Of a stretch of DNA of 47,923 nt, positions 31,627 through 47,420 are shown piece after piece. The first letter of the stretch is position 1, and each line of letters begins with the position of its first letter. Below the pieces are notes generated by a model. The model was not told the origin of the DNA and searched no databases. It saw nothing but the letters and a program-made list of their open reading frames with translations. Both the position numbers and the translations under genes were made by a program. Source of the DNA: a virus (taxonomy: Duplodnaviria; Caudoviricetes); the IMG/VR virus record IMGVR_UViG_3300020045_001232, positions 1-47,923 of that record; one strand, 5' to 3'.

Positions 31627-31641
31627 TGTATTCCTTTATAG

Positions 31642-31860
31642 TTAACTAATACGGCTCATAGCATCATTTTCCACTTCTTGTGGATATGAAGTACGTAGGG
31701 ATGAGCCAATCCCATGTACGGGTGATTCAATAGGACATAGTGCACGTGCTTCTCGTTCAAGGAGATCATAATCATAGTCAGATAAGATGTTACTATCTAA
31801 CACATAATAGATGTATCGATTAACGAGTACTTCATGTTCTAATGCTTGTGGTGTATTCAT
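31642..31860 (-). CDS. Stand-alone NAD+-dependent DNA ligase domain Ia-like protein
   Basis: YY-x(6)-SD-x-x-YD-x-L...SP-x-x-x-IG matches the LigA N-terminal domain Ia; no adenylation domain. Confidence 0.7.
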   Translation of the reverse strand: MNTPQALEHEVLVNRYIYYVLDSNILSDYDYDLLEREARALCPIESPVHGIGSSLRTSYPQEVENDAMSRIS

Positions 31861-31870
31861 GACCGACCCC

Positions 31871-32605
31871 CTATACTATAACCTCTTCTAACTCTTTCAT
31901 GTTTGGTCCTGCCCCAACTTCGCACAACAATGGCAAGTTCCAATTAACTCCGAATGCTTTGGAGATACTCTTGGGTAAATCTCGGAATGTTTCATGAATC
32001 ATAATTGTCGCTGGAATGACACTCGCTTGTGGAGCATCCAGTACAATACTATCATGTACAGTGGAGATGAGTTTACCTTCTAGTCCGGATTGCATCCAAC
32101 GATTAGCAAACGTAACACGTGCAACTGCCATGACATCAGCTCCGCATCCTTGATTGACATGGTTACAGATGTCGGGGATGTTCCATTCTGGGCCTCTCGA
32201 CGTTTGTCGTTGAGTGTGTGGGTGATGTCGTCCAAAAGGGCTGATGTTATATCCTCTAGTAGTGACTTCTTGGATGAGTTGGATGTGCTTTTGGTTGAGT
32301 CCATAATATTTCTCAAAGAAGGTATCTATAATCTTTTGCCAGAACTTGACGTTTGTACTTACTTTGCAGAAGTCAGGATCATGTGCATAAGCAAAAGCAG
32401 GCCCGCGATAAATACACCTAAACAGAAAGATCTTACTGATGAGGCGAGATATGAGGTTGAGGTCTTTTTGGTTTTTGGTATGTATGTCATTTAGTTTTGG
32501 GTTGTCCACGAATTCTAACCATTCTTGAATTCCATTCTTATCTTGGCTGAGGAAGAGATACGAAATCCATTCTAAGCTTTTCGCATCTGCATTTATAATT
32601 GCCAT
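31871..32605 (-). CDS. DNA polymerase family A, C-terminal (polymerase) part
   Basis: Motif A NADAKSLE at the very N-terminus, DIH, motif B R-x-x-x-K-x-x-x-F-x-x-x-Y, NH-x-x-QG-x-x-AD, motif C VHDS. Confidence 0.9.
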   Translation of the reverse strand: MAIINADAKSLEWISYLFLSQDKNGIQEWLEFVDNPKLNDIHTKNQKDLNLISRLISKIFLFRCIYRGPAFAYAHDPDFCKVSTNVKFWQKIIDTFFEKYYGLNQKHIQLIQEVTTRGYNISPFGRHHPHTQRQTSRGPEWNIPDICNHVNQGCGADVMAVARVTFANRWMQSGLEGKLISTVHDSIVLDAPQASVIPATIMIHETFRDLPKSISKAFGVNWNLPLLCEVGAGPNMKELEEVIV

Positions 32606-32607
32606 GG

Positions 32608-32787
32608 TTAATAAAAGTTAGGGTAGTATTGGATACTATAACGAGGTTTACTACGTGTTACCTGATCCCGTGAGAATACACAGGTGCCATACTGATTACG
32701 ATAGTAGGCACGTTCTCCGATAATCACACGAAAGCCTTGTGATCGCCAATCATCCCATGTATGGTACGTCCGTCCATTAATTGTCAT
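32608..32787 (-). CDS. 59-aa protein between the polymerase halves (not in the ORF track)
   Basis: MTINGRTYHTWDDWRSQGFRVIIGERAYYRNQYGTCVFSRDQVTRSKPRYSIQYYPNFY. Confidence 0.65.
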   Translation of the reverse strand: MTINGRTYHTWDDWRSQGFRVIIGERAYYRNQYGTCVFSRDQVTRSKPRYSIQYYPNFY

Positions 32788-32872
32788 ATCATATCCATTC
32801 TATATTACTACATTTAGTACATCGGTATGCGTAGTCATTATGACTATGCCCATCATAAACTCTATGAGATGT

Positions 32873-34018
32873 TTACATCTCATATCGGGAACAACAGAAT
32901 TTCTTGCATCCTCCTGGGAGATTTTGTTGATTTGGTTTGGTGCTGCTGAGTCTTCCTGTAACTGCAACGCATTGATTAAACTGTCCATGTACAGTTGAGT
33001 CAGTCCAGGTGTGTTCTTCAATGAGTTTAGGAATGCCGTCATAGTAGGTACCCCGAAGCTTCTCAATTCCTCTTCTGTCAAGTAAAGCTGCAATAATTCT
33101 AGATACTTTTCCTGATCCTTTAAGCGACTTGAGGATGTCTTCATTTGTTCCATAGTATCCTTCCTTAGCTAGTTCACTTCCCTTCAAGGGTTCTACGAGT
33201 CTCTCTAGTTTATATATTTGATTTAGTATTTGATATCGAGGTTGTCCTACCTTATCTCCGGTTTTGTACACTCCGATTGGGATACGAGTTTTTTCTGTGA
33301 TCTCTCCACCATATAACATACAACTGATGTGCGAAGGAGAACCAAGATTAAGAGGGATATCAGGAAATTCTTTATAAATGATTGCATCATACTTGGTACT
33401 TTCTTTCTCCAAGCGTAGAGACTCAGCCTTCGCTTCGTCACATGCAAATAAGAATCCATTATATTCCATCTCCTGTAGTACCAGCAAATCATAACAACAT
33501 ATACGAAATAACTTATACTTACTGGCATGTTCTGGTTTCTTGAACTCAGCTACTTGAGCAAGATAAAGCAAGTAAGTACTAGTGATGTCACCCTTGAGGT
33601 ATCCATCTAAGATTTCATGTGGAATGTCTGGTGTGTCAATCCCTTTATCCCAATACTGTGTCTTAACAACATCTAGTTTACGTTGTAAGTTTCGGCGTTC
33701 ACACGCTTCATCCAGACTAGGGTAACGCCATTGCTGATTGCTAAGGATGAACTCAGCTAACTGGCAATCCCATACAGGAAGACGTATACTAAAGTTAATA
33801 CCGATCCTACGACACCAATGTAAATCGAACTTTGCATTAAAAAGTACGACCAGTGTGGCCGAGTCCAATATGTTTTGTACTCGTTGCACATTATCTGGAA
33901 CAAACGTATGGTAACTGGTATCAGTACCATAGCCACCAAGGACCATATGATTATTGGAAGCAAAGGGATCTCCTTTTTTAAAGGTTGTTGTTTCGACATC
34001 TAGCGAGAAGATTTTCAT
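32873..34018 (-). CDS. DNA polymerase family A, N-terminal part (3'-5' exonuclease and thumb)
   Basis: ExoI DVET, ExoII FNAKFD, ExoIII Y-x-x-x-D, ME-x-NG, TGRLSS-x-x-PN-x-QN. Confidence 0.9.
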   Translation of the reverse strand: MKIFSLDVETTTFKKGDPFASNNHMVLGGYGTDTSYHTFVPDNVQRVQNILDSATLVVLFNAKFDLHWCRRIGINFSIRLPVWDCQLAEFILSNQQWRYPSLDEACERRNLQRKLDVVKTQYWDKGIDTPDIPHEILDGYLKGDITSTYLLYLAQVAEFKKPEHASKYKLFRICCYDLLVLQEMEYNGFLFACDEAKAESLRLEKESTKYDAIIYKEFPDIPLNLGSPSHISCMLYGGEITEKTRIPIGVYKTGDKVGQPRYQILNQIYKLERLVEPLKGSELAKEGYYGTNEDILKSLKGSGKVSRIIAALLDRRGIEKLRGTYYDGIPKLIEEHTWTDSTVHGQFNQCVAVTGRLSSTKPNQQNLPGGCKKFCCSRYEM

Positions 34019-34181
34019 CGAAGTTCATACTCTTCTATATACCAATCTGTTGTATCAAAACGATCTAAAAGAAGTTGCTTTGTTTCTTGACTACTTTTTT
34101 CTATCAAGGCATCTATATTATTTCTATATGCTGCATATACATATGGAGGGTCGTCTTGATTATTACATATTAATAGATAAA

Positions 34182-34367
34182 TCACGTAGTAACTCCTGGT
34201 GGTTCCTCTTCTGTTGGATAACCAACTGGGAAGATAAATCCACTTAGGTTATACTGTGGTCCTACATCTCGTTGTGCATCCTTCATGAAGGCATATGCAC
34301 GTTTCTCAACATCTTCTGCTGTTTCTGCATATACAAACAAATCTACTGGTACTCGAAAACGTTTCAT
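34182..34367 (-). CDS. Hypothetical protein
   Basis: GAGGA RBS; ATGA coupling. Confidence 0.6.
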   Translation of the reverse strand: MKRFRVPVDLFVYAETAEDVEKRAYAFMKDAQRDVGPQYNLSGFIFPVGYPTEEEPPGVTT

Positions 34368-34744
34368 GCTAGTTCCTCTGGTATATCAATCTCATCACCT
34401 AACTTCGAGGCGACGTAGCAGCGCATCGCAGCGATGCGGGGTGTTGGGCCGATATAGCTGTGCAAACTTTCGCCTTTTCTTCGCTTTGCCCCGAAAGGGT
34501 CGCCAAGACAGGCACTCCACAACGTCTCATCTGCCGTGTGCAAGGTGATCCTCTCCCGCTCGATGATCGAGCCACAGATAGCCCAGCTGGTTGAAAACTG
34601 GTAATTCTGATTTCCGGCGTTGGGCCAGAACTTGATTGGGTCGTCGTCGTTTTTAACTCCGATAAACTCAATATTTAGCCCCTCACATTTCGCCACTGTG
34701 TAATCCAGTGGGCGACCGATTAGCTTATTGGTCTTGATTTTCAT
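34364..34744 (-). CDS. NinX-like (DUF2591) protein
   Basis: L-x-G-x-x-LD-x-x-VA, ST-x-W-x-x-x-G-x-IIERE-x-I, GPTP-x-IAAMRC-x-V-x-SKLG. Confidence 0.75.
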   Translation of the reverse strand: MKIKTNKLIGRPLDYTVAKCEGLNIEFIGVKNDDDPIKFWPNAGNQNYQFSTSWAICGSIIERERITLHTADETLWSACLGDPFGAKRRKGESLHSYIGPTPRIAAMRCYVASKLGDEIDIPEELA

Positions 34745-34964
34745 GGCTACTCCTCCAGTTTTCTTCTACCAATAGTGTGCTGATAGTGTTCATTATAAGT
34801 TGTGCTTCGTTTGTGGCTTCACCAACGTCTTGAAAATATTCTGAGGCCACGTAGTTCTCAGGAGTGTATAAGAACTTTTTGATGTCCACGTCAATACTGC
34901 TAATCAATATGGCTAACTTTTGCACTTTATCGTGTATCAAAGTGATTTGTTTGTCTTTTTTCAT
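34725..34964 (-). CDS. Hypothetical protein
   Basis: Tightly packed ORF in the operon. Confidence 0.55.
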   Translation of the reverse strand: MKKDKQITLIHDKVQKLAILISSIDVDIKKFLYTPENYVASEYFQDVGEATNEAQLIMNTISTLLVEENWRSSHENQDQ

Positions 34965-35161
34965 AGTCGATCCATTTTGTTAGGCCACCCTTCGGGGAAT
35001 TCCATAAGGGCCATATCTTTAAAGCGTTTGATATTGAAGAATTGATCTTGTTCAGTTAGGGCATAACAAATAGCATTCACTAATTCTTCCTTGTAACCAA
35101 TAGGAATTGTAGTGTGATTGCGTATTCGTTTAGCCACAGCATCTGCTTCTGCTTGTTTCAT
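34961..35161 (-). CDS. Hypothetical protein
   Basis: ATGA-coupled; F-x-x-x-RF motif. Confidence 0.6.
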   Translation of the reverse strand: MKQAEADAVAKRIRNHTTIPIGYKEELVNAICYALTEQDQFFNIKRFKDMALMEFPEGWPNKMDRL

Positions 35162-36384
35162 GAGTAGTCTTTATACCTTGCAGTAGTGGGTTCTATGATA
35201 CAGTCGACCTTTCCGTGTCTCATAGATGCGTCAGTGTCTAAGTCACCAGATAGTTTGTTCTTACTAGCATGAAGGTGGCGGATGAATTCAAATCCATCTT
35301 GATGTGTAGCTCCAATACCTAATATCCAATCAGCTTCTGCTTGCTTGGCTGTCTTGGCATTCGCTACGTTGTCCATTGTTAGCCACTTCTTTCCTTCACC
35401 TGTACCATCTGCTTGACAGACTCCGATTACTGGGCAATACATCTTTGCTAGTTCCCTAGCCCATTGATAGATGGTTCCCAGACGGAGATCTTCTCGATCC
35501 CCTGTAAAACCCTTAACCTTATCTAGTTGATCAAAGATAATGCAAGAGGGGTTGTACTCGCGGCATATACGTTCTACTTGTGCTTTAGATATACTAGCCG
35601 AATCATATATCTTTAACTTACCTTTGACTAGGGCATGGTAACGGAGGTTGGAGTCTCTCTTATCGATAAACAACTCGTCTCTGGTTACACCTAGAGATGC
35701 TTGATAGCATCGAATCTGAACCTGATTGCCATCCTCTTCGTTGTTAAACCAAAGGATAGGACCATCAGTTTCTGCTAGTTGCTCTGCAAAGTAGGTGACT
35801 TCTGATGCAAGGAATGTAGTCTTACCTGTCTCTGGTCTAGCAAAGATAAAACCAAAGTTACCACGACGAAGACTACCCAACATCTTATTCAATGTTTGAA
35901 GTCGCCATCTTAGTCCATGCCGTGCTACGAAATCTGTATGCAGAGTATCTAGATCATCAGATACAAAGGATGTGTCTTGCACTTCTTCAGCAATATTCCC
36001 ATGCTGAGTGAGACTTTCCTGCAATTCCTGGAAAGATTTCTTACCTTCAGTTACTCCAATAGCAAGTAATGCTACATCATGTGCAAGACTTCGTTCCTTG
36101 TATTGAATCAGTAGTTGTTCAGCTACGTCTTTAGCAACATTAGCTTCTTTAATTACTGTCAATAAGGCTAGAGTTACCTCTTTGTCTTGTTGGATATTAC
36201 TCATTACAGTCAAGCTATATTCGTCGAAGCTTACATCTCTCTGGTACTCTTCCATAAGTTTATCTAAGAAGGTGTAAAGAGTTTGGAGTTCTCTATCATC
36301 CTTGATTGTAATGAATGAGCGATATTTATTGTAAACTTCTAGCTCTAAGAGTACCTTGATTAAGGCAGCTTCTGGTCGAATCAT
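35158..36384 (-). CDS. Replicative helicase (DnaB/T7 gp4-like, SF4)
   Basis: Walker A ARPETGKTT, FNNEE, Walker B IIFDQLD, Q-A, EAD, KNK. Confidence 0.92.
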   Translation of the reverse strand: MIRPEAALIKVLLELEVYNKYRSFITIKDDRELQTLYTFLDKLMEEYQRDVSFDEYSLTVMSNIQQDKEVTLALLTVIKEANVAKDVAEQLLIQYKERSLAHDVALLAIGVTEGKKSFQELQESLTQHGNIAEEVQDTSFVSDDLDTLHTDFVARHGLRWRLQTLNKMLGSLRRGNFGFIFARPETGKTTFLASEVTYFAEQLAETDGPILWFNNEEDGNQVQIRCYQASLGVTRDELFIDKRDSNLRYHALVKGKLKIYDSASISKAQVERICREYNPSCIIFDQLDKVKGFTGDREDLRLGTIYQWARELAKMYCPVIGVCQADGTGEGKKWLTMDNVANAKTAKQAEADWILGIGATHQDGFEFIRHLHASKNKLSGDLDTDASMRHGKVDCIIEPTTARYKDYS

Positions 36385-36385
36385 T

Positions 36386-36805
36386 CTACTCCTTTAGTTT
36401 GTATGCTTCGATGGCGGCGAGGGTCTTATCGTGCCTAACTAGCTGATCCATTTGCCGTTTAACTTCGTCGTCGTATCGTTTGTATCCTGCAAATTCTTTG
36501 GATCGAATCAGTTCAGATTCGACATCATCACGAGACTCGATCAACACCTTCTCGCACTGCTCGATCAGCGCGGCTTGCTGCGCGACCTTGGCTTGTAACA
36601 TAGAGACCTTAGCTTCCAGATGTGCATTAGTATTAAAAAATGCTGTAACTTTCTCTTGTTTGATACTTTGTGCTTTTAGCACACTACGCTCGGCGCCGAT
36701 TCGGGCGAGGATGTCGGCGATCCGCCCGGCTCCATCTTCAATGCCTTCGCCCGGCGTAAGTTGCGCTGCTGCCCATAATTCGTGGGCGATCAGTTCCTTA
36801 TCCAT
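36386..36805 (-). CDS. Hypothetical coiled-coil protein (start re-called)
   Basis: AHELWAAAQL-x-PGEGIEDG motif plus coiled coil; GC-rich patches. Confidence 0.6.
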   Translation of the reverse strand: MDKELIAHELWAAAQLTPGEGIEDGAGRIADILARIGAERSVLKAQSIKQEKVTAFFNTNAHLEAKVSMLQAKVAQQAALIEQCEKVLIESRDDVESELIRSKEFAGYKRYDDEVKRQMDQLVRHDKTLAAIEAYKLKE

Positions 36806-36809
36806 GTTT

Positions 36810-37061
36810 CTATTTCCAATCTTCAATTATAAATTGAGATACAAATACATTTACTTGTTTGTCTAGTAAATTGTATCTATCTTTCACTTCTTTTAGTCTT
36901 GTCTGATAGTACATAAGCGCTTCAACAAAAGCAATTTCTGCTGTTTTTGCTCTTATGGATAGATTCATTCCACGTGTCGTATCATATAACCAAAAACCAT
37001 CAGTGCATTCTGATAGTGATAATGTATCTGTTAGTTGTATGTGAGATAGTTGTTTAGTCAT
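36810..37061 (-). CDS. Hypothetical protein
   Basis: EC-x-DGFWLYD-x-TRGMNL motif. Confidence 0.65.
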   Translation of the reverse strand: MTKQLSHIQLTDTLSLSECTDGFWLYDTTRGMNLSIRAKTAEIAFVEALMYYQTRLKEVKDRYNLLDKQVNVFVSQFIIEDWK

Positions 37062-37794
37062 TTATGTACCTATCTATTTCCTCTATAGAATAATCTTTAG
37101 GTTTCTTATCTGCTAATATTACATGTGTCTCTAACCCAAAGAGTTGTGCTGTATGGGCAGCCTTGATGGCTGTTGTACGTTTGTCTGGATCAAGCCATAT
37201 AGTAATCTTATCATATAATTTACTAATGCGCAAGAGGCGTTGGTTAGATATAGTAGATCCGAAGATGGGACTTACCTCTGCAACACGACTGACTTTGATG
37301 GCACTGATGATGGATTCTACGAGAGTTAGTTCTCTTCCTCTGGTTCCCAAGGTATATATAAAATCATCGACTTTTCCTTGGGTGAACCACTTCCTTTTGG
37401 CTTTATCCGCACCAAATGTTCTCCCTTGCCACCCAAGTAACTCTCCTTCGATGACGTATGGGAACACGAGCATTTGCTTTGACTCTGACCACATGATTCG
37501 GTGTTTGGTTGCAGTATGTTCTGTAAAGCCGTATTGATAGAACCAATTTCTTGCGTCAGTCGGGAGATCTCGGCAGACATCGTATGGGAGAGTGATCTTA
37601 GATTCATTTGTGTTGTGTTGTTGTCCCATTGCAATGAATCTTTTGAGTGCATTCCCAGACCGATGATACCCACAACTATAGCACCAATGATGCCCATCAG
37701 AATATACACCAAGGTTATCTCTTCCATTATCCCTCCCTAATTCATGGCATTTTGGACATTGTTCATGTCTGATGATGTATGTTTCACTCGTCAT
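37054..37794 (-). CDS. DNA primase (zinc-binding domain plus TOPRIM; start re-called to ATG 37794)
   Basis: CPKC...DNL-x-x-Y-x-DGH-x-x-CYSC, Q-x-R, LVES-x-x-SA, WLDPD, PKD; GAGGA RBS. Confidence 0.88.
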   Translation of the reverse strand: MTSETYIIRHEQCPKCHELGRDNGRDNLGVYSDGHHWCYSCGYHRSGNALKRFIAMGQQHNTNESKITLPYDVCRDLPTDARNWFYQYGFTEHTATKHRIMWSESKQMLVFPYVIEGELLGWQGRTFGADKAKRKWFTQGKVDDFIYTLGTRGRELTLVESIISAIKVSRVAEVSPIFGSTISNQRLLRISKLYDKITIWLDPDKRTTAIKAAHTAQLFGLETHVILADKKPKDYSIEEIDRYIND

Positions 37795-37972
37795 ATTCCT
37801 CACGATGGTTTTGTTTTGCTTTACGTTGGCAAAATTCCACCGCCTCATCATCATCTTGTGTACAATGAGTACACAATTCAACATACTCAACCTTCCCTGT
37901 AGCTAGAGAGAATGCCTTTCGACACATCTCTAACTCAGTCATCTTTCTATCACATGCTTTACATCTAGACAT
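37784..37972 (-). CDS. Small zinc-finger protein
   Basis: RCKACD...LCTHC. Confidence 0.65.
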   Translation of the reverse strand: MSRCKACDRKMTELEMCRKAFSLATGKVEYVELCTHCTQDDDEAVEFCQRKAKQNHREEYDE

Positions 37973-38762
37973 TCGTTCGAAACTCCATAATTTTCTTGTA
38001 AAAGAAATTTGTAGTTATTGTTGGATAATTACTTGCATTTTCACGTAGATAGGCACCATATTTTAAGAGATAGAACAAACCAGATGCTCCATGTCCTATA
38101 TCCAAGGCAAAATTAGTACTTGCACCAGTAATATGATATTTTTTTGAGGGTTTTTTAGTTAATTCCCTTGGGTTTTGGTAGAAATAGTTATATGTCTCTT
38201 TATCTAATGTTGTCATACTATAAAAATATCTTGTTTCATTACATAGGTTCCAATCTTTTGAGATAAGCACTTTAGTAAGATCTTTTGGGTTATATTTAAC
38301 ATAACCACATAAACGAACAAGACTAAGATAGAAAGAAAGGGCACATGTGTTCTTTGTCCACATACTACTACCAGTAATTACTACAATTTTTAGCGTTGTA
38401 GGTTCTGCTAATTCCACTGGTGTCACTGTAGTTTTAGTGAAATGATGTAGTTTTTCATAAACATTCAGACATTCTTTAACATTTGTTAGAAATGTCTCAT
38501 ATACTACATCATTTGGAAAAACAATATAATAACAATTACTTTCCCATTGTTCTGTTTCCCATTCACCTTTCATTGCCAGATGACTACGACGGTATTTAAG
38601 ATCGATTAGATAATCTTTACAAGTTGTAAAATAACTAACTGTGTCGTAATTGTTGGCATTTTTACATGCTTTCCCCCAAAGCCATTGTCCAGGATTTTGC
38701 ATAAGCAGTAGATCTGTGGGTTGTGAGGTTTTGTTTGGGACAAAATTAAGCTTGACAGACAT
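37965..38762 (-). CDS. Hypothetical protein at the end of the ligase cluster
   Basis: 265-aa AT-rich ORF with CKDYL-x-D motif, overlapping both neighbours. Confidence 0.7.
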   Translation of the reverse strand: MSVKLNFVPNKTSQPTDLLLMQNPGQWLWGKACKNANNYDTVSYFTTCKDYLIDLKYRRSHLAMKGEWETEQWESNCYYIVFPNDVVYETFLTNVKECLNVYEKLHHFTKTTVTPVELAEPTTLKIVVITGSSMWTKNTCALSFYLSLVRLCGYVKYNPKDLTKVLISKDWNLCNETRYFYSMTTLDKETYNYFYQNPRELTKKPSKKYHITGASTNFALDIGHGASGLFYLLKYGAYLRENASNYPTITTNFFYKKIMEFRTNV

Positions 38763-39498
38763 TTTTGATTCCTTTTACATAGTTTGTAAGGGTTGTCCCT
38801 TCAAGTCCGGGAGCAGTGTTTACTTCTAAGACGTAGTATGAGTTGTAATATTGATTAAATATGAGATCCACAGCACCAAAATCAAGGTCCAGAGCATTAA
38901 CTGCGGCAATGGCAATATCTTTTGCTTGATCTGTTGGAGTATAATCATCCCGACAATATACCCAGCCAGTGTGAGCATTACGAATAAGGTTATTAGCATC
39001 TGTTTCTCCCTGTCGTTTGCGTTTGATTTGTGCATCGATGACCGACCCATTCATTACATGAATCCGACATTCAAACGTCTTCTTCATATATTTCGTGTAA
39101 AGCCTTACATCGGGCAGTGGCTGGCCTTTCTCATGCGTGGTGATACCCTGACCACTGTGCCCTGTCAGTGTGGCTCTGGCGACAGCCATAGGCCATGCAG
39201 CGGCCACTTCTTTGCTTGTAGTCCATTCAACGGTACGAATATTATGTTCCCATAGGCGTTGGAAGGCTAAGAGTTTATCTTGTGCAATATCTCGTGTGCT
39301 ATTCATCTCAACACCACGATTTGTTTGTACACTATTTGTTCCACCGTAGTAGATGAGTAGATCTGTCTTGCGAGTTGGTCGTGTACTGTTTGCCATACGA
39401 CGGATACATGGAATACCAGCATCAATCAGGGCATCTTTGAGTGCTTTGCAAGCAGCACTTCCCATCTTGTATGGGACAAGGATTACTCGATTATACAT
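38746..39498 (-). CDS. ATP-grasp ligase (RimK-like; start re-called)
   Basis: DK, GHSG-x-GI, E-x-R-x-HV, IRN, LDFGAVD, VLEVNTAPG. Confidence 0.9.
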   Translation of the reverse strand: MYNRVILVPYKMGSAACKALKDALIDAGIPCIRRMANSTRPTRKTDLLIYYGGTNSVQTNRGVEMNSTRDIAQDKLLAFQRLWEHNIRTVEWTTSKEVAAAWPMAVARATLTGHSGQGITTHEKGQPLPDVRLYTKYMKKTFECRIHVMNGSVIDAQIKRKRQGETDANNLIRNAHTGWVYCRDDYTPTDQAKDIAIAAVNALDLDFGAVDLIFNQYYNSYYVLEVNTAPGLEGTTLTNYVKGIKNVCQA

Positions 39499-40765
39499 GT
39501 TTATGTTTTCCTGAGCAGGTTGGACATAGGGCAATGACTTGGTAATTGTCAATTAAGATTTCGCATTCTGTTAGGGTGTTCCATGTAATCTTATTTGTAC
39601 ACAGATCACATGCACATGGGAACCTTTCATCCATCCACATCTCATACGATACATCATAGTTGTTGATGGTAGTTCGTTCGTCTTGTTCGGCAATATCACT
39701 AAGATAGATGGTGAGATATTTCTCTCGTTGTAAGATGTTAGTGACTTTGCCTGAGATGATCTGGGTAAGATCAAGCTCATCAAAGAGGGTCTTATTCAGA
39801 AAGATGATAATCTTTAAGAAGTCCCTGTCCGTATTTAACATTTGACATTTAAGATTGTATGCATTAGTACCAATGATATCATATGCATCCACTTTAACTA
39901 GTATTCTATCACCACGATGAATCTTGTCTAGTGCTTGATCCATTGAATGGATATCATTGTGTGTAAGGAAATAACTGTTTGGCGCGTCATTCAATTGCGG
40001 GTTAGTATGCATCTCCCCAGTAGTCGTACAAACCGTTGGAAACTGAATAGGGGTAACTTTTTTTTTAGGTTCAATGGTACGTAACTCAACTAACTTTCTA
40101 TCTTCCAATGAGATGGAATACAAAGTCATTGGTTTTAGATCAATACATGATGTGATTGTACCACCATTGCGCTTAGCAATCCAATAGGCCAGGGAATCTT
40201 CTGATGCAACTAGAAACGTTGATGTGGTTTCAAGGATATACAGTGGACGTTGTGCATTGCGAATGAAATACATGGTCTTATCTGTGACATCATACCAAAT
40301 GAAAGCAAAAGCCCCGGTGATGTCTCCGATTACATCGTCGACGTTGCCAACACCAAGGGCATTAGCAATAGCTGCGGAATCTACTGTAGATTTAGAACAG
40401 AACTCTTTATAGTTTCCAATCATTCCGTTGTGGACAAGACAGATATCCTCGTTCTCATCCCAGAAGGGATGGGCATCTGCGTGTTTCTTTTCCCCGTGAG
40501 TTGCTTTACGGTTATGTCCAATCACCATTTGATACTCTTGGAACATACGAGAATTAAATGTTTTGTATTGTGGTGTGTTTACAAAGTGTCCAGCAGCCGA
40601 TGCTTGTTTCTTGATTTCGACATTACCAATTTTAGTAATACCAAAAACACCTGTTGCATCCCAACCACGAATAGCGTCGGCATAGAGCATCTGTTGAAAA
40701 ATATCAGCATCCTTATTATTGAATCCTGATTTATATTTTGAGATCATACCGACGATGCCACACAT
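39491..40765 (-). CDS. Class II (Ntn) glutamine amidotransferase with C-terminal zinc ribbon
   Basis: MCGIVG, RG-x-D-x-TG, GHNR-x-AT-x-G, HPF, HNG, VDS, RN-x-x-RPL, ASE; terminal CDLC...CPTC. Confidence 0.92.
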   Translation of the reverse strand: MCGIVGMISKYKSGFNNKDADIFQQMLYADAIRGWDATGVFGITKIGNVEIKKQASAAGHFVNTPQYKTFNSRMFQEYQMVIGHNRKATHGEKKHADAHPFWDENEDICLVHNGMIGNYKEFCSKSTVDSAAIANALGVGNVDDVIGDITGAFAFIWYDVTDKTMYFIRNAQRPLYILETTSTFLVASEDSLAYWIAKRNGGTITSCIDLKPMTLYSISLEDRKLVELRTIEPKKKVTPIQFPTVCTTTGEMHTNPQLNDAPNSYFLTHNDIHSMDQALDKIHRGDRILVKVDAYDIIGTNAYNLKCQMLNTDRDFLKIIIFLNKTLFDELDLTQIISGKVTNILQREKYLTIYLSDIAEQDERTTINNYDVSYEMWMDERFPCACDLCTNKITWNTLTECEILIDNYQVIALCPTCSGKHKHV

Positions 40766-40766
40766 A

Positions 40767-41783
40767 TTAAAACTCCATTCGTTCTTGTGGTGTTGTGACT
40801 GCTCTTACCATTGTTTGTTCTAGTTCTTGCCATAGTCGGCGCGCTCCGGGTCCTGGAATTGGCCTAGGTTCTGGATCAAATCTGAGGCGTATCTCTTCTT
40901 GTATTTCTCTGTTGATTGTTGCTAATTTAATGTAACTGATAGCATTTTCCATCTTCTCTTGTACTGTATGTTTCTTTGGGATAAGATGTGTGCTTAATGT
41001 ACCAAAAACATCAAACAGAAAAGCTTCGTATTCTGATGTTGAATTAAGATTTTGTAATGTATAAATTAATTGAGTGATATTTTGTTGTTTTGCATACAGC
41101 TTTATACAGGAAAGTAGATTAATCCACGTCATGATTCGTTGACTGTTTGCTGTCCCTTCCATGTGTCGGAATTCTACTGTACCTTTACATTCCATTGGGT
41201 GGAAGTTTAATGCTGTGTATTTATTCCAGCGATCTACAACTCTACGTGGATTTTCTGTGAAATCTCTATACATATTTACATAATCTGTGTCTGTAAGTCT
41301 TACACAGAACACATTATTAGTGCGTGTTTCTCCTGCCCAATCAAACAACAATTCTTCTACTGCTGTATAAGTTAACAACAGATTGGTGATGTGTTCAATA
41401 GAAAGATCCCGGACATTCATATGTACATGCACGGAAGTTCGTGGTGAGAAGTCTGCATCTTTGGGCAATGATGTATTTAATTGATGCAGAGCAGCCTCAA
41501 TTTGCGTACATTTTAATGGGATAGATACAAATTCTACACCATTATTACGCAAGCTATTATCTACTGTGATATCCCAGTATGGACGATATTCATGTGCGAT
41601 GGTGGGATTTGGTACATTCTCTACTTCAACTTCAATACCAAAGATGAATGCACGTTGTACAAAATCATATTTATTTTTGAATGTTGCATCTTGTGCTACA
41701 TACAATTTTTCTCGACTTGCTTGCCCCAGTGTAGGAAGATCAAAGAAGGAACTGATGCGAGCTTTGTTTACTTTAAATTCCAT
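40767..41783 (-). CDS. Putative amidoligase (COOH-NH2 ligase superfamily)
   Basis: GIEVEVE, D-x-SLR, EFVS, RTSVHVH, KY-x-ALN, GTVEFRH. Confidence 0.88.
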   Translation of the reverse strand: MEFKVNKARISSFFDLPTLGQASREKLYVAQDATFKNKYDFVQRAFIFGIEVEVENVPNPTIAHEYRPYWDITVDNSLRNNGVEFVSIPLKCTQIEAALHQLNTSLPKDADFSPRTSVHVHMNVRDLSIEHITNLLLTYTAVEELLFDWAGETRTNNVFCVRLTDTDYVNMYRDFTENPRRVVDRWNKYTALNFHPMECKGTVEFRHMEGTANSQRIMTWINLLSCIKLYAKQQNITQLIYTLQNLNSTSEYEAFLFDVFGTLSTHLIPKKHTVQEKMENAISYIKLATINREIQEEIRLRFDPEPRPIPGPGARRLWQELEQTMVRAVTTPQERMEF

Positions 41784-42403
41784 GTTTGAACTCCTGTGTA
41801 TTTAAGCAAATCTTGGATCTCTTGTAAGAAGATTGGTTGTACTACTGTGATTGTACGTAGATTAAAATCCAATCTTCCTACAACATACTGTCGATATAGA
41901 AGATTGATATTACTTTGTTCATCTTGTTGTATTGCAAACTTCTTACTAACTGCAACAAAAGAGAAGATCTTTTTTGAGATTTCATCTAAATGTGCATAGG
42001 ATGGATGTAGTGCTTCTACTGCTAATGCTTTCCAACGAGGATCAGTATTGTATCGTCCTGGTAAGGTTGGAGTAACATAGATGCTAGTACAAAAACTACG
42101 TTTCCATTGTTTCTGTGGTACTTTATACAAATACATTGGAATGCCTTGTACGTTGTAATACCCCACTCCTGGAAGGAATGGAGTAATATTTACGTCACTT
42201 TGTTTTGTATAGATGGTTGTGTTGTCTGTTAGTACATCACGGAAATGGTAGCTATTTGCATCACATCCGATGAAGAAGACGATTCGTGGTTTGTTATCAA
42301 CAACATCAACCATGTATGTATTTGTATAGCGTTTGTCGAAGTCTGTTCGGATGCCTTCATGCCCTTCAGGCAAGTCCGTGAGTTTGGCTAACCAGTTCGT
42401 CAT
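41768..42403 (-). CDS. Hypothetical protein within the ligase cluster (start re-called)
   Basis: GYYN...P-x-KQWKR motif; AGG RBS before MTNWL. Confidence 0.65.
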   Translation of the reverse strand: MTNWLAKLTDLPEGHEGIRTDFDKRYTNTYMVDVVDNKPRIVFFIGCDANSYHFRDVLTDNTTIYTKQSDVNITPFLPGVGYYNVQGIPMYLYKVPQKQWKRSFCTSIYVTPTLPGRYNTDPRWKALAVEALHPSYAHLDEISKKIFSFVAVSKKFAIQQDEQSNINLLYRQYVVGRLDFNLRTITVVQPIFLQEIQDLLKYTGVQTWNLK

Positions 42404-43130
42404 ATGCCTTCCTGTCATTGTTGTTGATACATTGTTGAATGAGATGACCGACCTCATCACTTACCTTATTCCCAGCGGCCACAAATTCTACAGCCTTTTG
42501 GGTTTGTTCATATACCCATTGAATCATCTTGGGGGAGAAGATCCAGAAGTTACTGAGGGTACGATACTCACACCCATACTCTTTGATGCGATGGCATCCG
42601 GCCTTGCCATACAACTGGCGTCGGGCCAATGCTTGCGGTGTGCAGTCAAGGACAGTGGAGGGAACACCAAGAAACAGATCCATTGCACGGATGACTTCAA
42701 TTGGATCTTCTGTAGTACCCACATGTACATGACCACCAGCAGAGCGAAGCGTGGCATCTTCCGCCTTGGGGCTTGGGTTGATCTCTTTAGTCCAGGCATT
42801 GTAGTCTGGCATACATCCAAACTCTAGTGCTTGTGGATGATCCAACTCTTTTGGATCAAATGACACCGATGAGTCTTGACTGAACTCATGTTCAGGCAAT
42901 ACTTGCTTGAGGTTGTCCATCACATAAGCAATAGCATTGATGAATTCCTCGTGGTTGTGACAAGGTGCAATGTTGAATTCAACACTGACATTATCTTCCA
43001 AGATAGCGAAGCCCGCTTTCTCAAGGGGGCGTGGGAAATCCTTACTACCTCCGATCAAGCCAACAGCCGAGACGTGTTGCTTGTTGAGTTTCAGGAAGAA
43101 CTCTGGGTCAGCACCGATGCTAAAGCTCAT
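42366..43130 (-). CDS. phiEco32-like COOH-NH2 ligase type 2
   Basis: IGADPEFF, GG-x-K-x-x-P, EDNV-x-x-EFN, FGC-x-PD, RSAGGH-x-H-x-G, RR-x-LYGKAG, EYRTLSNFW. Confidence 0.92.
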   Translation of the reverse strand: MSFSIGADPEFFLKLNKQHVSAVGLIGGSKDFPRPLEKAGFAILEDNVSVEFNIAPCHNHEEFINAIAYVMDNLKQVLPEHEFSQDSSVSFDPKELDHPQALEFGCMPDYNAWTKEINPSPKAEDATLRSAGGHVHVGTTEDPIEVIRAMDLFLGVPSTVLDCTPQALARRQLYGKAGCHRIKEYGCEYRTLSNFWIFSPKMIQWVYEQTQKAVEFVAAGNKVSDEVGHLIQQCINNNDRKAYDELVSQTHGLA

Positions 43131-43135
43131 GATGT

Positions 43136-43771
43136 TTAATCCTTATATAGAAAGTCTTGAATAAGTTTAGTACAATACTTTTGAAAGTTTGTACCTGGTA
43201 CCCATTCGGGATGCCCTTGAATTCCAAGGGCGTTTAGTTTTGTGAAGTGTACAACTTCCGGTACAACAGAGACATGAAATTCTTTATCGTCTTCTGCGTA
43301 TGCGTTAATTGTACGTGATTTATCTACGGCTACGACTGTGTTGTATTTATTAGGCACCATCATTTGGTGATGACAGGAATTAGTATGTAGTTCTTCGTTG
43401 GTACGAGTATCTACAATACTATGTCCATTCCCTGCTGTATGTCCTAGGATGTGTTGAACAAGTGATCCGCCGTCCATGGCGCACAACATCTGCGCACCAC
43501 GACAAATGCCAACGATGGGCAAGCCCATCTTAACAGCACGATCAATCAATCGCATCTCTAGTACATCTCGACGACTGGGTTTGTCGTCTGCTCTACACCA
43601 CGAATTGCTTGGTTGATTATAAATAGCAGGTGAGATATCCTCACCCCCATGGAGAAGTAGCACTCCATTGGGGACGAGATCATCTGCTGACTGAACTGAA
43701 CGCACATCACCAATCAATTTGAATGGGTCATGCATACAGTTATAATGGGCAGAGAATAAGATACGTTTCAT
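43136..43771 (-). CDS. Class I glutamine amidotransferase / peptidase C26 (PuuD-like)
   Basis: GGEDI-x-P-x-x-Y, RD-x-x-E, GICRGAQ, NS-x-HHQ, Q-x-HPE. Confidence 0.9.
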   Translation of the reverse strand: MKRILFSAHYNCMHDPFKLIGDVRSVQSADDLVPNGVLLLHGGEDISPAIYNQPSNSWCRADDKPSRRDVLEMRLIDRAVKMGLPIVGICRGAQMLCAMDGGSLVQHILGHTAGNGHSIVDTRTNEELHTNSCHHQMMVPNKYNTVVAVDKSRTINAYAEDDKEFHVSVVPEVVHFTKLNALGIQGHPEWVPGTNFQKYCTKLIQDFLYKD

Positions 43772-43928
43772 TTGTTGTAACGTTTTGCCAGGAAATGTTG
43801 GATGTTACTGGGAACTTCTACTCCTGCTACTTGCACTGCCTTGTTGCCACGAATGGCAAAGCGTGCCCAATTGTCCCAACCAATGTTGAAGAAGATGTCA
43901 AATAGGTTGTTGTTGATGTGAATAACTT

Positions 43929-44354
43929 TCATTCTGCACTTCCTTCTGTAATTTCTACGAGTTTAATTTCATCTTCGTTGTATGCGATGGATGTATAGTC
44001 ATTATTGTGTCGCATAATGTACATCACATTCGGTTTTGCATCTGTATAAAATGCAATACCATGCATAGGGCATTCCAAGAATCTACCTATCTTTCCTGGG
44101 ACACCATACTTTGTAACAATTTCTACGCCGGCATCAAAGCCCCGAGCCTTCAAATCTTTGATGTATGCGTCGTACTTTTCCTTACTATAAAACTGCTGGC
44201 CGTTTGGTACTGTTACCAGAGCAGATCGTTGGAAGGTTTGGGGAGTATGTGTGTAAGCTGGAATTACTTTTGTTTCATATCGGTTGATTGAATGTTCAAT
44301 CATATCTGTTGTATCCAATTGGATAACTTGTTGGCGTTTCCATTTACGTGCCAT
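43929..44354 (-). CDS. Hypothetical protein
   Basis: 141-aa ORF in the early operon. Confidence 0.65.
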   Translation of the reverse strand: MARKWKRQQVIQLDTTDMIEHSINRYETKVIPAYTHTPQTFQRSALVTVPNGQQFYSKEKYDAYIKDLKARGFDAGVEIVTKYGVPGKIGRFLECPMHGIAFYTDAKPNVMYIMRHNNDYTSIAYNEDEIKLVEITEGSAE

Positions 44355-44359
44355 AAGAG

Positions 44360-44461
44360 CTATCGATAATCGAAGGGGATGTACTCACTATCCCAGTTGC
44401 CGTTGTCCCATGTAGCACAGCCAGATAGGGCTAAGATGATACAGATTAGGAGAGGTTTCAT
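44360..44461 (-). CDS. 33-aa lipoprotein (not in the ORF track)
   Basis: MKPLLICIILALSGC-ATWDNGNWDSEYIPFDYR: basic start, hydrophobic core, lipobox LSGC; ATGA-coupled. Confidence 0.7.
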   Translation of the reverse strand: MKPLLICIILALSGCATWDNGNWDSEYIPFDYR

Positions 44462-44667
44462 TTCTTTTTCGCTATTAATTTAAGAGAAGCACGTGGAAAG
44501 GCATAGATACCATTAGATAGCCGGTATCCATATCCGGTATCTAGTCTGGTTACTGTATAGACATTTCTAACAAGTTCATTCATACTATCTACCCAGCTAT
44601 TACCCCAGTTCTTTGCTTTCTTTACTTTACGATAGATTAGTACCTTATCTCCAATTTGTAGGCTCAC
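44458..44667 (-). CDS. Small SH3/KOW-like hypothetical protein
   Basis: IGDKV...W-x-x-x-M...F-x-x-x-x-L pattern. Confidence 0.6.
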   Translation of the reverse strand: MSLQIGDKVLIYRKVKKAKNWGNSWVDSMNELVRNVYTVTRLDTGYGYRLSNGIYAFPRASLKLIAKKK

Positions 44668-44933
44668 GTTAATACTCCTTTTTTATAATACAACTTTTTT
44701 GATTGAAGGGATTCTTTTGTGTAAACACAGAGGACATCGTTGCCATCCGTCATTGCTTGTACTAAAGTCTCTTCGGAAGGACACACGATAGTCTTTGTAT
44801 TATATTCTTTGTATTTTGTGGCAGATACTACTGCGATTACAGAAAAGAGGACGAAAGAACAGAAAAGTTTGAGGATTTCAAGCATGGCGGTAGATGGAAT
44901 GTTTGGTTTCAAAGCCATTATGATCAATTGCAA
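44664..44933 (-). CDS. Membrane-anchored or exported small protein (start probably MLEIL)
   Basis: Hydrophobic N-terminal helix followed by a two-Cys domain. Confidence 0.55.
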   Translation of the reverse strand: MQLIIMALKPNIPSTAMLEILKLFCSFVLFSVIAVVSATKYKEYNTKTIVCPSEETLVQAMTDGNDVLCVYTKESLQSKKLYYKKGVLT

Positions 44934-45063
44934 TCACTTTGGAGGTGATAATTGCCCTGTTGTTGGAGCACGTGGGGTGATCAACTGGTTTACAGATTGT
45001 TGCTGGAACATCTTCACGAATGAAGTCATACTTTGATGGAATGTAATGTACGATAGGTTTCAT
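44878..45063 (-). CDS. Hypothetical protein
   Basis: P-x-DHP...TS-x-V...FET-x-x-S-x-Y motif; AGGA RBS. Confidence 0.65.
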   Translation of the reverse strand: MKPIVHYIPSKYDFIREDVPATICKPVDHPTCSNNRAIITSKVIAIDHNGFETKHSIYRHA

Positions 45064-45329
45064 TGTATTTCCTAGGTAAAGATGAGTAGATAGATGAGTA
45101 GTAATAATACTACCCAGAGGATGTTGATGAGGATTAGCATGACCGACCTTTAACTAAAAGCCGTGTTACGTACGTATTGTATGGTTAATGCCATAAGGCA
45201 TACTGAGGTACAGATACTAATAGCTGCTACAAGTAGTGCTAAACAGAGGTTCATTACTTTTAAATACATGGTGCGACCCCTCATATCAAGGGTTGTAGGG
45301 ATTGCCGGTATTTATTTGTCGCTATTGTA

Positions 45330-45512
45330 TTACTTCTTGGTGATTACCTGGGCGGGTACGATGGTAATCTTCATGTGGATTTCATCTGAGATTGTATAGA
45401 AGGCACAATCCTCGAAGATTGTCGCAATACTCTCTTGCAGATTGTCGAAAGCCTCTTGTGCTGTTCTACCCATTGCTGCATGTTGTGTCTCATTACTATA
45501 ACATATATACAT
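45330..45512 (-). CDS. Hypothetical protein
   Basis: AGGAG RBS; G-x-T-x-x-EA motif. Confidence 0.6.
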   Translation of the reverse strand: MYICYSNETQHAAMGRTAQEAFDNLQESIATIFEDCAFYTISDEIHMKITIVPAQVITKK

Positions 45513-45695
45513 AATGTTCTCCTAAGATGTTTGATGATACCAAGTATATTCTATGTCTGTTGACATTTCTTTCGTTGTTTGTTACAGTATCGTCCATATA
45601 GACTATAGTAATAGTCTTTTGGGTATTGGATACCATCTTTTTTGATTTGTTTTGCTTTCCATTCATGAAAGGGTAGCATAAAGATCTTTCTTGTT

Positions 45696-45780
45696 TGGTG
45701 CGGGTAGTCGGACTCGAACCGACAAGGCTATCGCCGGCAGATTTTAAGTCTGCTATGTTTACCAATTTCACCATACCCGC
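45696..45780 (-). tRNA. tRNA-Leu(UAA)
   Basis: GCGGGTA/TACCCGC acceptor, GCAGA-CTTAAAA-TCTGC anticodon arm, long variable arm, GTTCGA, encoded CCA. Confidence 0.93.
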
Positions 45781-45790
45781 ATATATTCTT

Positions 45791-45864
45791 TGGTGCCAGA
45801 TAACAGAGTCGAACTGTTGTCGGTGGGTTACAAATCCACTGCTCTGCCATTGAGCTAATCCGGC
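45791..45864 (-). tRNA. tRNA-Thr(UGU)
   Basis: GCCGGAT/ATCTGGC acceptor, loop TTTGTAA, GTTCGA, CCA; one A-C mismatch in the anticodon stem. Confidence 0.88.
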
Positions 45865-45866
45865 TG

Positions 45867-45942
45867 TGGTGGGTGCCGTGAGGTTCGAACTCACTGCCTG
45901 TCGATTATGAGCCGACTGCTCATCCATATGAGCTTGACACCC
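45867..45942 (-). tRNA. tRNA with CAU anticodon (elongator Met or lysidine-modified Ile2)
   Basis: GGGTGTC/GGCACCC acceptor, GTCGG-CTCATAA-TCGAC arm, GTTCGA, CCA; lacks initiator features. Confidence 0.88.
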
Positions 45943-46137
45943 AGCACATCCTCATGATATAGAGGATGTGGTGTTTCCAATCTTAAATGATTTATATGAT
46001 TGTCACGTCTTATCCGGGTACGCGCCGTTCGTACTAAATCATGTTGTTCCCCTTTCTATGACCGACCTAGTATTTATCACGAGATAAATACTTATTGTTT
46101 GATGTGTGCACGCAATCCGAGTTGGAACATCGGATGC

Positions 46138-46329
46138 TTACGGTAGGTTTCGGGTTCCAATTTCTCTCTCAGTTGGCGCTTCATGTGGTCTGACAATTCT
46201 TTGTTCGGGTTGACGTGGACGATTTGGTTGCTGGAATTGAGCAGCATGTAATTCTCCTTGGATTGGATACTTTGAGATGCTTGGTTGTTGGTAAAGCATC
46301 CAGTTGAGATGACTGGTTGCGAAAGTCAT
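46138..46329 (-). CDS. Hypothetical protein
   Basis: 63-aa ORF starting right after the upstream stop. Confidence 0.45.
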   Translation of the reverse strand: MTFATSHLNWMLYQQPSISKYPIQGELHAAQFQQPNRPRQPEQRIVRPHEAPTEREIGTRNLP

Positions 46330-46330
46330 G

Positions 46331-46624
46331 CTAGTAATACACCTTATCAGTTAGCCATTTGATAAATGACTGGCGATTTTCTACCCATTGTTCTGTACAT
46401 CCACTGTTGGTATTTAATGTTGCTGTTCCGCTCGTGTATTGATACACACGATACCATGGTTGTGGGGGTTTGATACGATATCGGCTGGGTTTTTCTGTGA
46501 ATCCCAGATCGGACAGTATGCACCATTCTGGTTTGTTATCCTTTCCAACATTCGTTTGTATCTCTTCGTTGTTAGCGAATGCTGTGATGATTGGAAGGAG
46601 TTCTTTTGCTTGTTGTGGGGTCAT
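46331..46624 (-). CDS. Hypothetical early protein (paralog A)
   Basis: I-x-AFA...EIQ...W...YRIKP...WYRVYQY. Confidence 0.75.
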   Translation of the reverse strand: MTPQQAKELLPIITAFANNEEIQTNVGKDNKPEWCILSDLGFTEKPSRYRIKPPQPWYRVYQYTSGTATLNTNSGCTEQWVENRQSFIKWLTDKVYY

Positions 46625-46628
46625 GATG

Positions 46629-46751
46629 TCACCAGTATTTGAAAAGAAAGTGAAAGAGGATGTATCCGCCTGTTCCGATTAGTGTTGCCCAGCAAAGTAG
46701 GAGGATAATACCAATCATTTTGTATAGGGTAAAAGCTTGTTGATGTTTCAT
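46629..46751 (-). CDS. 40-aa prepilin-like membrane peptide (not in the ORF track)
   Basis: MKHQQAFTLYKMIGIILLLCWATLIGTGGYILFHFLFKYW; TAAGGA RBS. Confidence 0.7.
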   Translation of the reverse strand: MKHQQAFTLYKMIGIILLLCWATLIGTGGYILFHFLFKYW

Positions 46752-46871
46752 GTAGAAGATTCCTTATGTAAGTTGCAATCACGATGACCGACCCTACCCT
46801 GCCCCTGGCATTTGACCTTGCCTTTATGTTGCAGTTGTAGGGCAGCTTGCTGCCTAATTATGTTGTTGCAT

Positions 46872-46967
46872 TAGGGATTGAAGCCCGAAGGGTCAAGACT
46901 ACAACATGGCTTTATCATGTTGTTGGCTTGATTCACGAAAGCCCGGCGGCGAAGCCGAAATGCCCTA
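46872..46967. other. Multi-stem palindromic non-coding element
   Basis: Nested pairings TAGGGAT/ATGCCCTA, TGAA/TTCA, GCCC-GAA-GGGT, TCAAG/CTTGA, ACAACATG/CATGTTGT, CGGC-GAA-GCCG. Confidence 0.65.
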
Positions 46968-47258
46968 GTAGTAAACCCGTGGAGTTAGCCATGCGATAAA
47001 GTCACAACTTTCTTGTGTTTCTATCTCTGTGCAGATACTATTATCTCCTATTGTAGCGGTTCCATTTCCATATTGGTATACACGATACCACTGTTTAGGT
47101 TTGATACGGTAGGCGTTACGTAATGTAAATGTAGGATTGGACGTATTCAGCCACTCATTCTTACTCTCCGGGACATGCACTTGGATTTCCTTACCTTCGG
47201 CAAATGCTTTAATACATTCAATGTTAGAGAGAAAGGTAGTTGCTTGTTGTCTGTTCAT
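46965..47258 (-). CDS. Hypothetical early protein (paralog B)
   Basis: Same motifs and length (97 aa) as 46331..46624; GGAG RBS. Confidence 0.75.
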   Translation of the reverse strand: MNRQQATTFLSNIECIKAFAEGKEIQVHVPESKNEWLNTSNPTFTLRNAYRIKPKQWYRVYQYGNGTATIGDNSICTEIETQESCDFIAWLTPRVYY

Positions 47259-47414: not shown

Positions 47415-47420
47415 GCTTAA

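Follow-up and report, generated by a model that had tools for sequence, protein, structure and literature searches.

A strand-oriented word repeated in the early arm of a virus genome joins the nick-site motif family of tf- and LUZ24-like phages and points to a small HNH protein as candidate nickase

We analysed 47,923 nucleotides of DNA from a virus (Duplodnaviria; Caudoviricetes), IMG/VR virus record IMGVR_UViG_3300020045_001232, positions 1 to 47,923; this whole stretch is called the window below. The subjects are a 10-base word, GGTCGGTCAT, that is repeated six times in it, and the gene of a small HNH protein that is a candidate for reading the word. The window is laid out as two convergent arms, as are LUZ24-like phages and Zobellviridae. 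The late arm, on the + strand, encodes terL, portal, capsid, head closure and endolysin (PHROGs matches), and the early or replication arm, on the - strand, contains all six copies of the word. The features are listed here from the early end, with nick positions predicted by register with phage tf from the annotation of the tf record (ORF, open reading frame; aa, amino acids).

25459..47921, - strand: early/replication arm, with an amidoligase cluster, primase, DnaB-type helicase, split family A polymerase, exonuclease and RNR
46784..46793, - strand: GGTCGGTCAT copy, intergenic, just upstream of a small early gene; predicted nick 46789/46788
46058..46067, - strand: GGTCGGTCAT copy, intergenic, upstream of a Shine-Dalgarno-like AAGGGG; predicted nick 46063/46062
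45139..45148, - strand: GGTCGGTCAT copy, overlapping the ATG (45140) of a 22-aa hydrophobic ORF; predicted nick 45144/45143
42444..42453, - strand: GGTCGGTCAT copy within the COOH-NH2 ligase gene (42366-43130), frame VGHL; predicted nick 42449/42448
39038..39047, - strand: GGTCGGTCAT copy within the ATP-grasp gene (38746-39552), frame GSVI; predicted nick 39043/39042
31859..31868, - strand: GGTCGGTCAT copy, overlapping the ATG (31860) of a 72-aa ORF; predicted nick 31864/31863
1122..1421, + strand: candidate nickase, 99 aa, basic, HNH (beta-beta-alpha-metal) preceded by two N-terminal helices; in the late arm, immediately upstream of terL

An exact search of the whole window found GGTCGGTCAT at 31859, 39038, 42444, 45139, 46058 and 46784, all on the - strand, as the original prediction had read them by eye. 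There is no copy in the structural (late) arm and none in the opposite orientation, and about 30 kb of the window is free of the word. A purine directly precedes each of the six copies, and the gaps counted from the right end are 0.7, 0.9, 2.7, 3.4 and 7.2 kb, confirming that they shrink toward that end. Shuffled sequence contains the word 0.03 times on average and once at most, in keeping with the earlier expectation of well under one copy. In the over-representation check that had been proposed, with a Markov background of order 3, it ranks first among words of 8, 9 and 10 letters (10-mer log10 p -13.6). No one-mismatch copy is present in the window, compared with 1.82 expected, and copies with at most two mismatches number 14 including the six exact ones, compared with 27.3 expected, which is fewer than chance would give. 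Shuffles, Markov background and mismatch counts thus reject chance as the source of the six copies. The frames given earlier for the two intragenic copies are correct. Two copies had also been placed on start codons: that at 31859 does overlap the start of a 72-aa ORF, which comes after the DNA polymerase C-terminal gene, and the one at 45139 overlaps an ATG that opens merely the 22-aa ORF.

The right end of the window cuts inside its first early gene. ORF 47421-47921 is 5'-open: in its alignment with a 306-aa homologue, residue 1 pairs with residue 145. Since relatives carry more copies of the word beyond the homologue of this gene, copies beyond the window end have probably been lost, and the densest part of the copy gradient is probably missing from the window.

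A megablast search returned no close phage record for the window, and the closest cultured relative found is Alcaligenes phage vB_Af_QDWS535 (terL 54%, helicase 45%). Relatives carry GGTCGGTCAT or the near variants GGTCGATCA, GGTCTATCA, GGACTATCA, TACTATCAT, TGCTATCAT and TACGGTGAC in the same orientation. Across 92 loci plus the window, GGTCGGTCA was counted 109 times on the coding strand of the replication arm, compared with 7 copies on the other strand, counts that are not independent because the loci overlap one another, and GGWCKRTCA is matched in 38 of 41 whole viral records, mostly with strong polarity. Unguided scans, with counts written as copies on the early strand/copies on the opposite strand, returned GGTCGATCA (GTCG-ATCA) 11/0 together with GTCT-ATCA 5/0 in QDWS535, GGTCTATCA (GTCT-ATCA) 9/0 in both G021 and G019, GGACGATCA 7/0 in G023, GGTCGATA 12/0 in G024, GGACTATCAA (GACT-ATCA) 5/0 in G040, TACTATCAT (TACT-ATCAT) 7/1 in each of T2S1 and Vibrio 1.293.O, ATGCTATCA (TGCT-ATCA) 8/0 in CVT22 and 6/1 in Klyazma, CTACGGTGAC (TACG-GTGAC) 8/1 in GAP52 and GCTATCAT 10/1 in T4S1. 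LUZ24 has TACT-ATGAC 7/0 (TACTATGAC), tf has TACT-GTGAC 11/0 (TACTGTGAC) and RIO-1 has TACTATCA 6/0. Several genomes contain two neighbouring variants together, as tf does. MEP401 and SU10 have merely 2 copies of the word, and no clear word of this register was found in TC6, GP100, KIT05, Slicky01, MW202701, MW202796, G039, G028 or G011.

These words share one register, in which the GTCG-GTCAT of the window lies over the TACT-ATGAC of LUZ24 with C3, R5, T6 and A8 fixed in all words, and steps of one or two letters link them to TACTATGAC and TACTGTGAC. A link of the + strand word to LUZ24 through a shared ATGAC was discarded as wrong, since it has the opposite orientation, and six TACGGTGA copies in L285 proved to be a local tandem repeat. 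The gaps between copies widen away from the early end in 8 of 8 genomes (the window, CVT22, GAP52, QDWS535, tf, LUZ24, G032 and G021). A weak pattern near background, CACGATCA on the early strand, was seen 5/1 in G025 and 4/0 in L002 (MW202796); no small HNH was found in either.

The register joins the window word to a published nick motif. In the cited passages of the tf report, tf DNA has 14 ligatable nicks at TACT/RTGMC, all on the top strand and 11 of the 14 in the left (early) half; those passages establish no function and name no enzyme for tf, and its authors suggest easier packaging as the role of the nicks (PMC3517423). The top strand is the early coding strand in the tf record. The passages available for Rembedalsseter describe 13 nanopore drop-outs (nicks) at WACTRTGAC; enrichment of this motif extends to 61 related phages, where it lies mostly on the coding strand and toward the right side when genomes are oriented by terL (PMC11780129). 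Read ends at GTACTATGAC in 8 places are described for P1-14Or01 in part of another report (PMC3634792), and the passages of PMC3890496 hold motif counts only. Like the tf/LUZ24 nick sites, the window word is a non-palindromic 9-10-mer that lies on the early coding strand, is densest at the early end and falls both inside and between genes; the genomes also share the register, the two convergent arms, an amidoligase cluster and the same small HNH family. Unlike that group, the window has a separate primase and DnaB-type helicase, falls outside the group, has no copies in its late arm, and its nicking is predicted. Other programmed one-strand sites in phage genomes have unrelated words: the nicks in the linear virion genomes of T5/BF23 (R/GCGCRGG; genes sciA and sciB) and those of phiKMV-like phages (CGACxxxxxCCTA/CTCCGG), both as given in passages of PMC3517423. 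The window word is a variant of a known but unexplained nick-site system and not a new kind of signal, and the description of it as undescribed is only partly true. By homology with tf, the word is likely cut at GGTCG/GTCAT late in infection, the nick falling on the non-template strand of the early genes.

We compared the two arms and strands in 23 genomes, using for each genome its own word. The early arms contain 129 own-word copies on the coding strand (1.3 expected) and 1 on the template strand (1.1 expected), the figure of 129 being partly built in because each genome's word was picked as its top word. The late arms contain 6 copies on the early strand (0.75 expected) and 8 on the opposite strand (1.2 expected). 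Polarity is strict in the early arm only. Two genomes, G016 and G034, were kept out of these arm counts, as each has both orientations and a gene order that looks inverted or chimeric. In G016:C1:1-6000 and G034:C1:21600-25849 the motif switches orientation at apparent inversions or duplications of gene order, and these switches are probably assembly chimeras or real inversions.

Near-matches to the words are avoided. One-mismatch words have observed/expected ratios of 0.50 on the early template strand, 0.43 on the late template strand and 0.49 on the late coding strand over the same 23 genomes, and letter-permuted controls, which lie near 1.0 ± 0.2, were as low in only 0, 0 and 2 of 300 cases, respectively. 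Over 19 genomes, the opposite-strand near-cognate ratio is 0.39, below all 500 of 500 permuted-word controls. The flanks are uninformative: at 87 GTCGGTCA sites from 13 genomes, no position within 45 nucleotides holds more than 0.19 bits, the adjacent two bases excepted. Long ORFs contain 57 of these 87 sites, at 0.0 to 0.95 of gene length and in frames 34/8/15. In L009, the closest relative, the copy at 31859 is exact while both flanks diverge, and a clade variant, GGACGGTCAT, stands at 39038. More distant relatives lack both intragenic copies (39038 and 42444) and have copies of their own elsewhere, indicating site turnover.

Because the flanks are uninformative, sites turn over, all frames are used and near-matches are purged on untranscribed strands, we conclude that the word is read as DNA and not as a promoter or RNA site. 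The near-match avoidance on strands absent from mRNA further suggests a protein that reads DNA and to which stray sites carry a cost, as they would to a nuclease. The original prediction had offered a site for an activator or antiterminator, or an RNA processing or translation site. A promoter element or signal of that type for early and middle transcripts would suit the 129 of 130 early-arm copies on the coding strand, the 8 late-arm copies on the late coding strand and the two window copies that overlap ATGs. It is nevertheless very improbable given that there is no spaced second element or fixed gene-upstream position, that template strands never present in mRNA are purged as well, and that the region has no sigma-70 excess (43 compared with 50 expected).

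The same prediction had also proposed a Chi- or KOPS-like signal, that is, a mimic of a host sequence that protects or pulls incoming DNA. Its single orientation and greatest density at the end that probably enters first fit such a role. However, the word follows the phage and not the host. Phages of related enterobacterial hosts have different words (TGCTATCA in CVT22 and Klyazma, TACGGTGAC in GAP52 and TACTGTGAC in 7-11), and one word is common to tf (Pseudomonas putida) and 7-11 (Salmonella). Enterobacterial Chi is GCTGGTGG, and none of those phage words equals it. We thus regard this explanation as extremely improbable. What stands of the original prediction is its core: the word is a selected, non-palindromic, strand-oriented signal at the DNA level with a gradient toward the early end. 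The comparison with relatives adds that it is common in register to several phage families.

We next consider the protein encoded by ORF 1122-1421. Among 98 homologues, H56 is invariant and N70 and N79 are present in at least 90%. A structural model (predicted local distance difference test, pLDDT, 84) has two N-terminal helices and a core of strands 53-56 and 71-74 and helix 76-80. Its best BFVD structure matches are HNHc proteins (E 1.6e-8), and a Foldseek search of the PDB gave no match at E<=0.001. Pfam HNH matches were obtained for homologues and none for the window protein itself, which has a profile match to Cas8-HNH (E 0.004). The best VIA Z of 3.8 is weak, with HNH domains in the top five, and the Z values of 2.9-3.5 for the HNH nicking endonucleases Gme HNH (4h9d), GVE2 HNH (5h0o) and I-HmuI are too low to assign an HNH subfamily. 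The protein shares the His-Asn-Asn beta-beta-alpha core with these nickases; unlike them, it has no zinc-binding cysteines, it has two basic N-terminal helices, and its family is positioned in the late or replication arm.

A profile search found the small HNH in 33 of 52 records at first pass, including tf, LUZ24, GAP52, CVT22, QDWS535 and the complete close relatives. The 19 records without a match comprise 11 partial contigs lacking the terL region, G028, which has terL but no word, and seven named genomes (TC6, GP100, KIT05, Slicky01, MW202701, MW202796 and RIO-1), six of which have no clear word. In tf and LUZ24, the HNH lies in a frame overlapping tf_29 and gp26 that is identical at 82 of 96 positions, compared with 35 of 89 for the annotated frame. 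Both records, LUZ24 (L090:15622-15933, gp26) and tf (L092:16126-16416, tf_29), thus annotate the poorly conserved frame rather than the HNH frame, whose probable start is a TTG after GGAGG. The tf HNH protein matches 269 phage records, 105 of them Pseudomonas phages, and no T5-like or phiKMV-like phage is among the tblastn matches listed for the small HNH. The same HNH domain also occurs in fusions, at the C-terminus of 717-727-aa proteins and at the N-terminus of an AAA-type protein (P0164, P0170 and P0214).

Three other genes were considered and set aside. A second HNH (29749-30096, - strand) belongs to a family present in just 11 of 27 word-rich genomes; it lies between the exonuclease and metallophosphoesterase genes, in a slot that holds a T7 endonuclease I-like gene in tf, QDWS535 and G032. 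As possible readers, ORF 41768-42460 is present both with and without the word, and ORF 47421-47921 is confined to 8 genomes.

The word covaries with the small HNH. In 29 labelled genomes, word distance correlates with HNH distance with Spearman coefficients of 0.64-0.80, compared with 0.10-0.65 for 15 other genes, and after partialling out each other gene the HNH-word correlation is 0.59-0.69. The corresponding values are 0.70 for HNH, 0.55 for primase and 0.26 for terL. The discordant cases favour HNH: G018 belongs to the GTCGGTCA clade by its polymerase and exonuclease trees, but its HNH is foreign and its early arm lacks the word, and T4S1 and T2S1 group together by word on the HNH tree and not on the polymerase and exonuclease trees. 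Word predictions fixed beforehand were correct in six of eight named phages: 275E43-1 (8/1), 172P1 (9/1), 4_4572 (7/2), P59 (9/0), Vp_R1 (12/0) and 7-11 (11/1, ten copies being the exact tf word). Those for VP41s3 and CW02 failed, and the reversed-pattern control overlaps TACTATCAT itself and is not independent. The nearest labelled HNH also gave the right word for 13 of 16 new viral contigs at an HNH identity of 65% or above; contigs needed 4 kb or more of upstream sequence and were de-duplicated, training contigs were dropped, and a close HNH also means a close genome. All 10 labelled genomes with GTCGGTCA have Arg at residue 25 of the HNH, and 13 genomes whose word has A at the corresponding letter have Gln there, a rule that L300 obeys (Arg, GGACGGTCA four times). 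Judging from this sequence pattern, it is an even bet that the HNH protein is the enzyme and that residue 25 in helix 2 (Arg in the window, Gln in most A-variants) reads the base 3' of the cut.

We therefore propose, with a probability of roughly 0.65, that the packaged genome is nicked on one strand, in a programmed way, at the six words; these would be a variant of the tf/LUZ24 TACT/RTGMC sites, recognised and cut by the HNH protein of ORF 1122-1421. Several points weigh against it. The nick in this phage is a prediction by homology with tf; the window word GTCGGTCAT differs from tf TACTGTGAC in 5 of 9 letters, the two being joined solely via intermediate words, and it does not fit the published consensus TACTRTGMC / WACTRTGAC. 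The late arms hold the 8 opposite-strand copies mentioned above, and tf sites are all on one strand. Regarding covariation, the permutation p-values take no account of kinship, and four labels (ICP2, G036, G041 and G018) were assigned once the data had been seen. Contigs with an HNH less than 65% identical had the predicted word in 1 of 24 cases. SU10, MEP401, G039, VP41s3 and CW02 have the HNH yet 0-2 copies of the expected word, RIO-1 has its word 6/0 yet no HNH match, and L359 has a Val25 HNH yet four copies of GGTCGGTCAT. The four copies in L359:886-5318, AGGTCGGTCAT, are on the same strand as the Val25-type HNH gene, which makes this either a counter-example or a different layout.

Part of this evidence would also suit a nick or protein-binding site of the same family read by another phage protein, the terminase complex or another gene, with the HNH serving terminal-repeat processing or packaging. 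The HNH adjoins terL in the window, and terminase-adjacent HNH genes often serve end processing according to the cited part of PMC3592412. Nearest-neighbour word prediction, with 22 of 29 correct for HNH and 22 of 26 for terminase, is a tie once single-member words are set aside, and the word-poor HNH carriers, RIO-1 and the break of the residue-25 rule in L359 point the same way. In LUZ24, tf and GAP52, however, the HNH lies in the replication arm, far from terL; the window's word and HNH type recur in five genomes whose terminase is of a distant type (in four of them, 26-30% identity to that of the window); and the terL correlation with word distance is the low one given above. We consider this explanation improbable.

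A further alternative is that the word serves replication, for instance as a recognition site for primase or a start of strand displacement, with no nick in the virion. GTC is the T7 primase trinucleotide; it occurs twice in the word, which is strand-oriented, and the primase tree matches the labels as well as the HNH tree does, with 9 changes and 12 letter steps each by parsimony over 25 shared taxa (the other seven genes require 10 changes and 13-16 letter steps). Against this, GTC is on the other strand in the tf/LUZ24 variants, the long copy-free part of the window is at odds with a replication signal, near-match avoidance on both strands suits a nuclease better, and the word correlation of primase is below that of HNH. 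The homologous tf word, moreover, is physically nicked, as the passages of PMC3517423 describe. There is thus little chance that the word is a replication signal of this sort.

Other observations were made along the window. The tRNA genes Met-CAT, Thr-TGT and Leu-TAA lie at 45696-45942 (- strand), between the copies at 46058 and 45139, and the 97-aa early ORFs 46331-46624 and 46965-47258 (- strand) are mutual paralogues. The family A DNA polymerase is split into two genes (31642-34018, - strand) with small ORFs in between, and the 72-aa ORF that follows is weakly similar to a piece of NAD-dependent ligases. The ORFs scanned include the RNR large subunit (548 aa, 25459-27105, - strand) and no gene for the small subunit; both genes are present in QDWS535. 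In the late arm (+ strand), 763-1119, 5118-5417 and 12567-13142 encode a DUF5856/starvation-inducible-type protein, GroES (Cpn10) and a protein with a Pgp3 C-terminal domain match, the last probably a tail fibre tip. A word of another class, GGACTATCAG, occupies the same late-gene place in three genomes (the window near 7008, - strand; G001 at 37.6 kb; G003 at 22.5 kb), a conservation that may be protein constraint. Other repeated words are AATATTAGGA and CTAACATTAG on both strands of QDWS535 (L001), TTATAGATAC in G024, TGCCTAGCGG in Slicky01, TCCAAGGGTA in MW202701 and GCTGCACGGA in G027; these are possibly promoters or repeats.

If the proposed nick sites are cut as predicted, a late-expressed HNH would nick GGTCG/GTCAT on one strand of progeny DNA, and virions would carry breaks on the non-template strand of early genes. 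Such nicks could act as swivels: the DNA that enters first, still tethered to the capsid, could turn and so shed twist during its transcription by host RNA polymerase. We favour this role because it would explain both the strand rule, by which the early template is avoided, and the crowding at the early end. It is the most speculative part of the proposal and we rate it as unlikely. Easier packaging, the role suggested for the tf nicks, may apply here instead. LUZ24-like phages encode a gyrase inhibitor, according to passages of PMC10886550. An inhibitor of this kind would add to the need for swivels.

Nicks in phage genomes have been on record for about 50 years with no function assigned. The passages of the tf/LUZ24 literature that were covered name no nickase gene for that group. 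Searches on nicks together with LUZ24, RIO-1, Zobellviridae, sciA/sciB, nanopore and HNH, covering few subscription papers and no supplements, found nothing on the word or on the HNH as a nickase, and searches with the motif strings gave no phage paper among the matches listed. Through the present analysis the motif family, formerly that of one Pseudomonas cluster, takes in several families that include cultured phages. Since the candidate is one small gene whose knockout would remove all nicks at once, the question of function is directly testable, and 100-aa nickases with differing 9-bp sites would be a useful tool set. More tentatively, and with considerable doubt on our part, the helix-helix-HNH family of about 100 aa may be the programmed nickase of tf/LUZ24-like, Zobellviridae and Grimontviridae podophages and of the uncultured clade of the window, with a 9-bp specificity that drifts one letter at a time together with the N-terminal helices (Arg25 with G and Gln25 with A at the cut), widespread nicking and a swivel role. 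If this is true, these phages hold a natural set of tiny site-specific nickases, and genome nicking would be far commoner than the few Pseudomonas and T5 cases.

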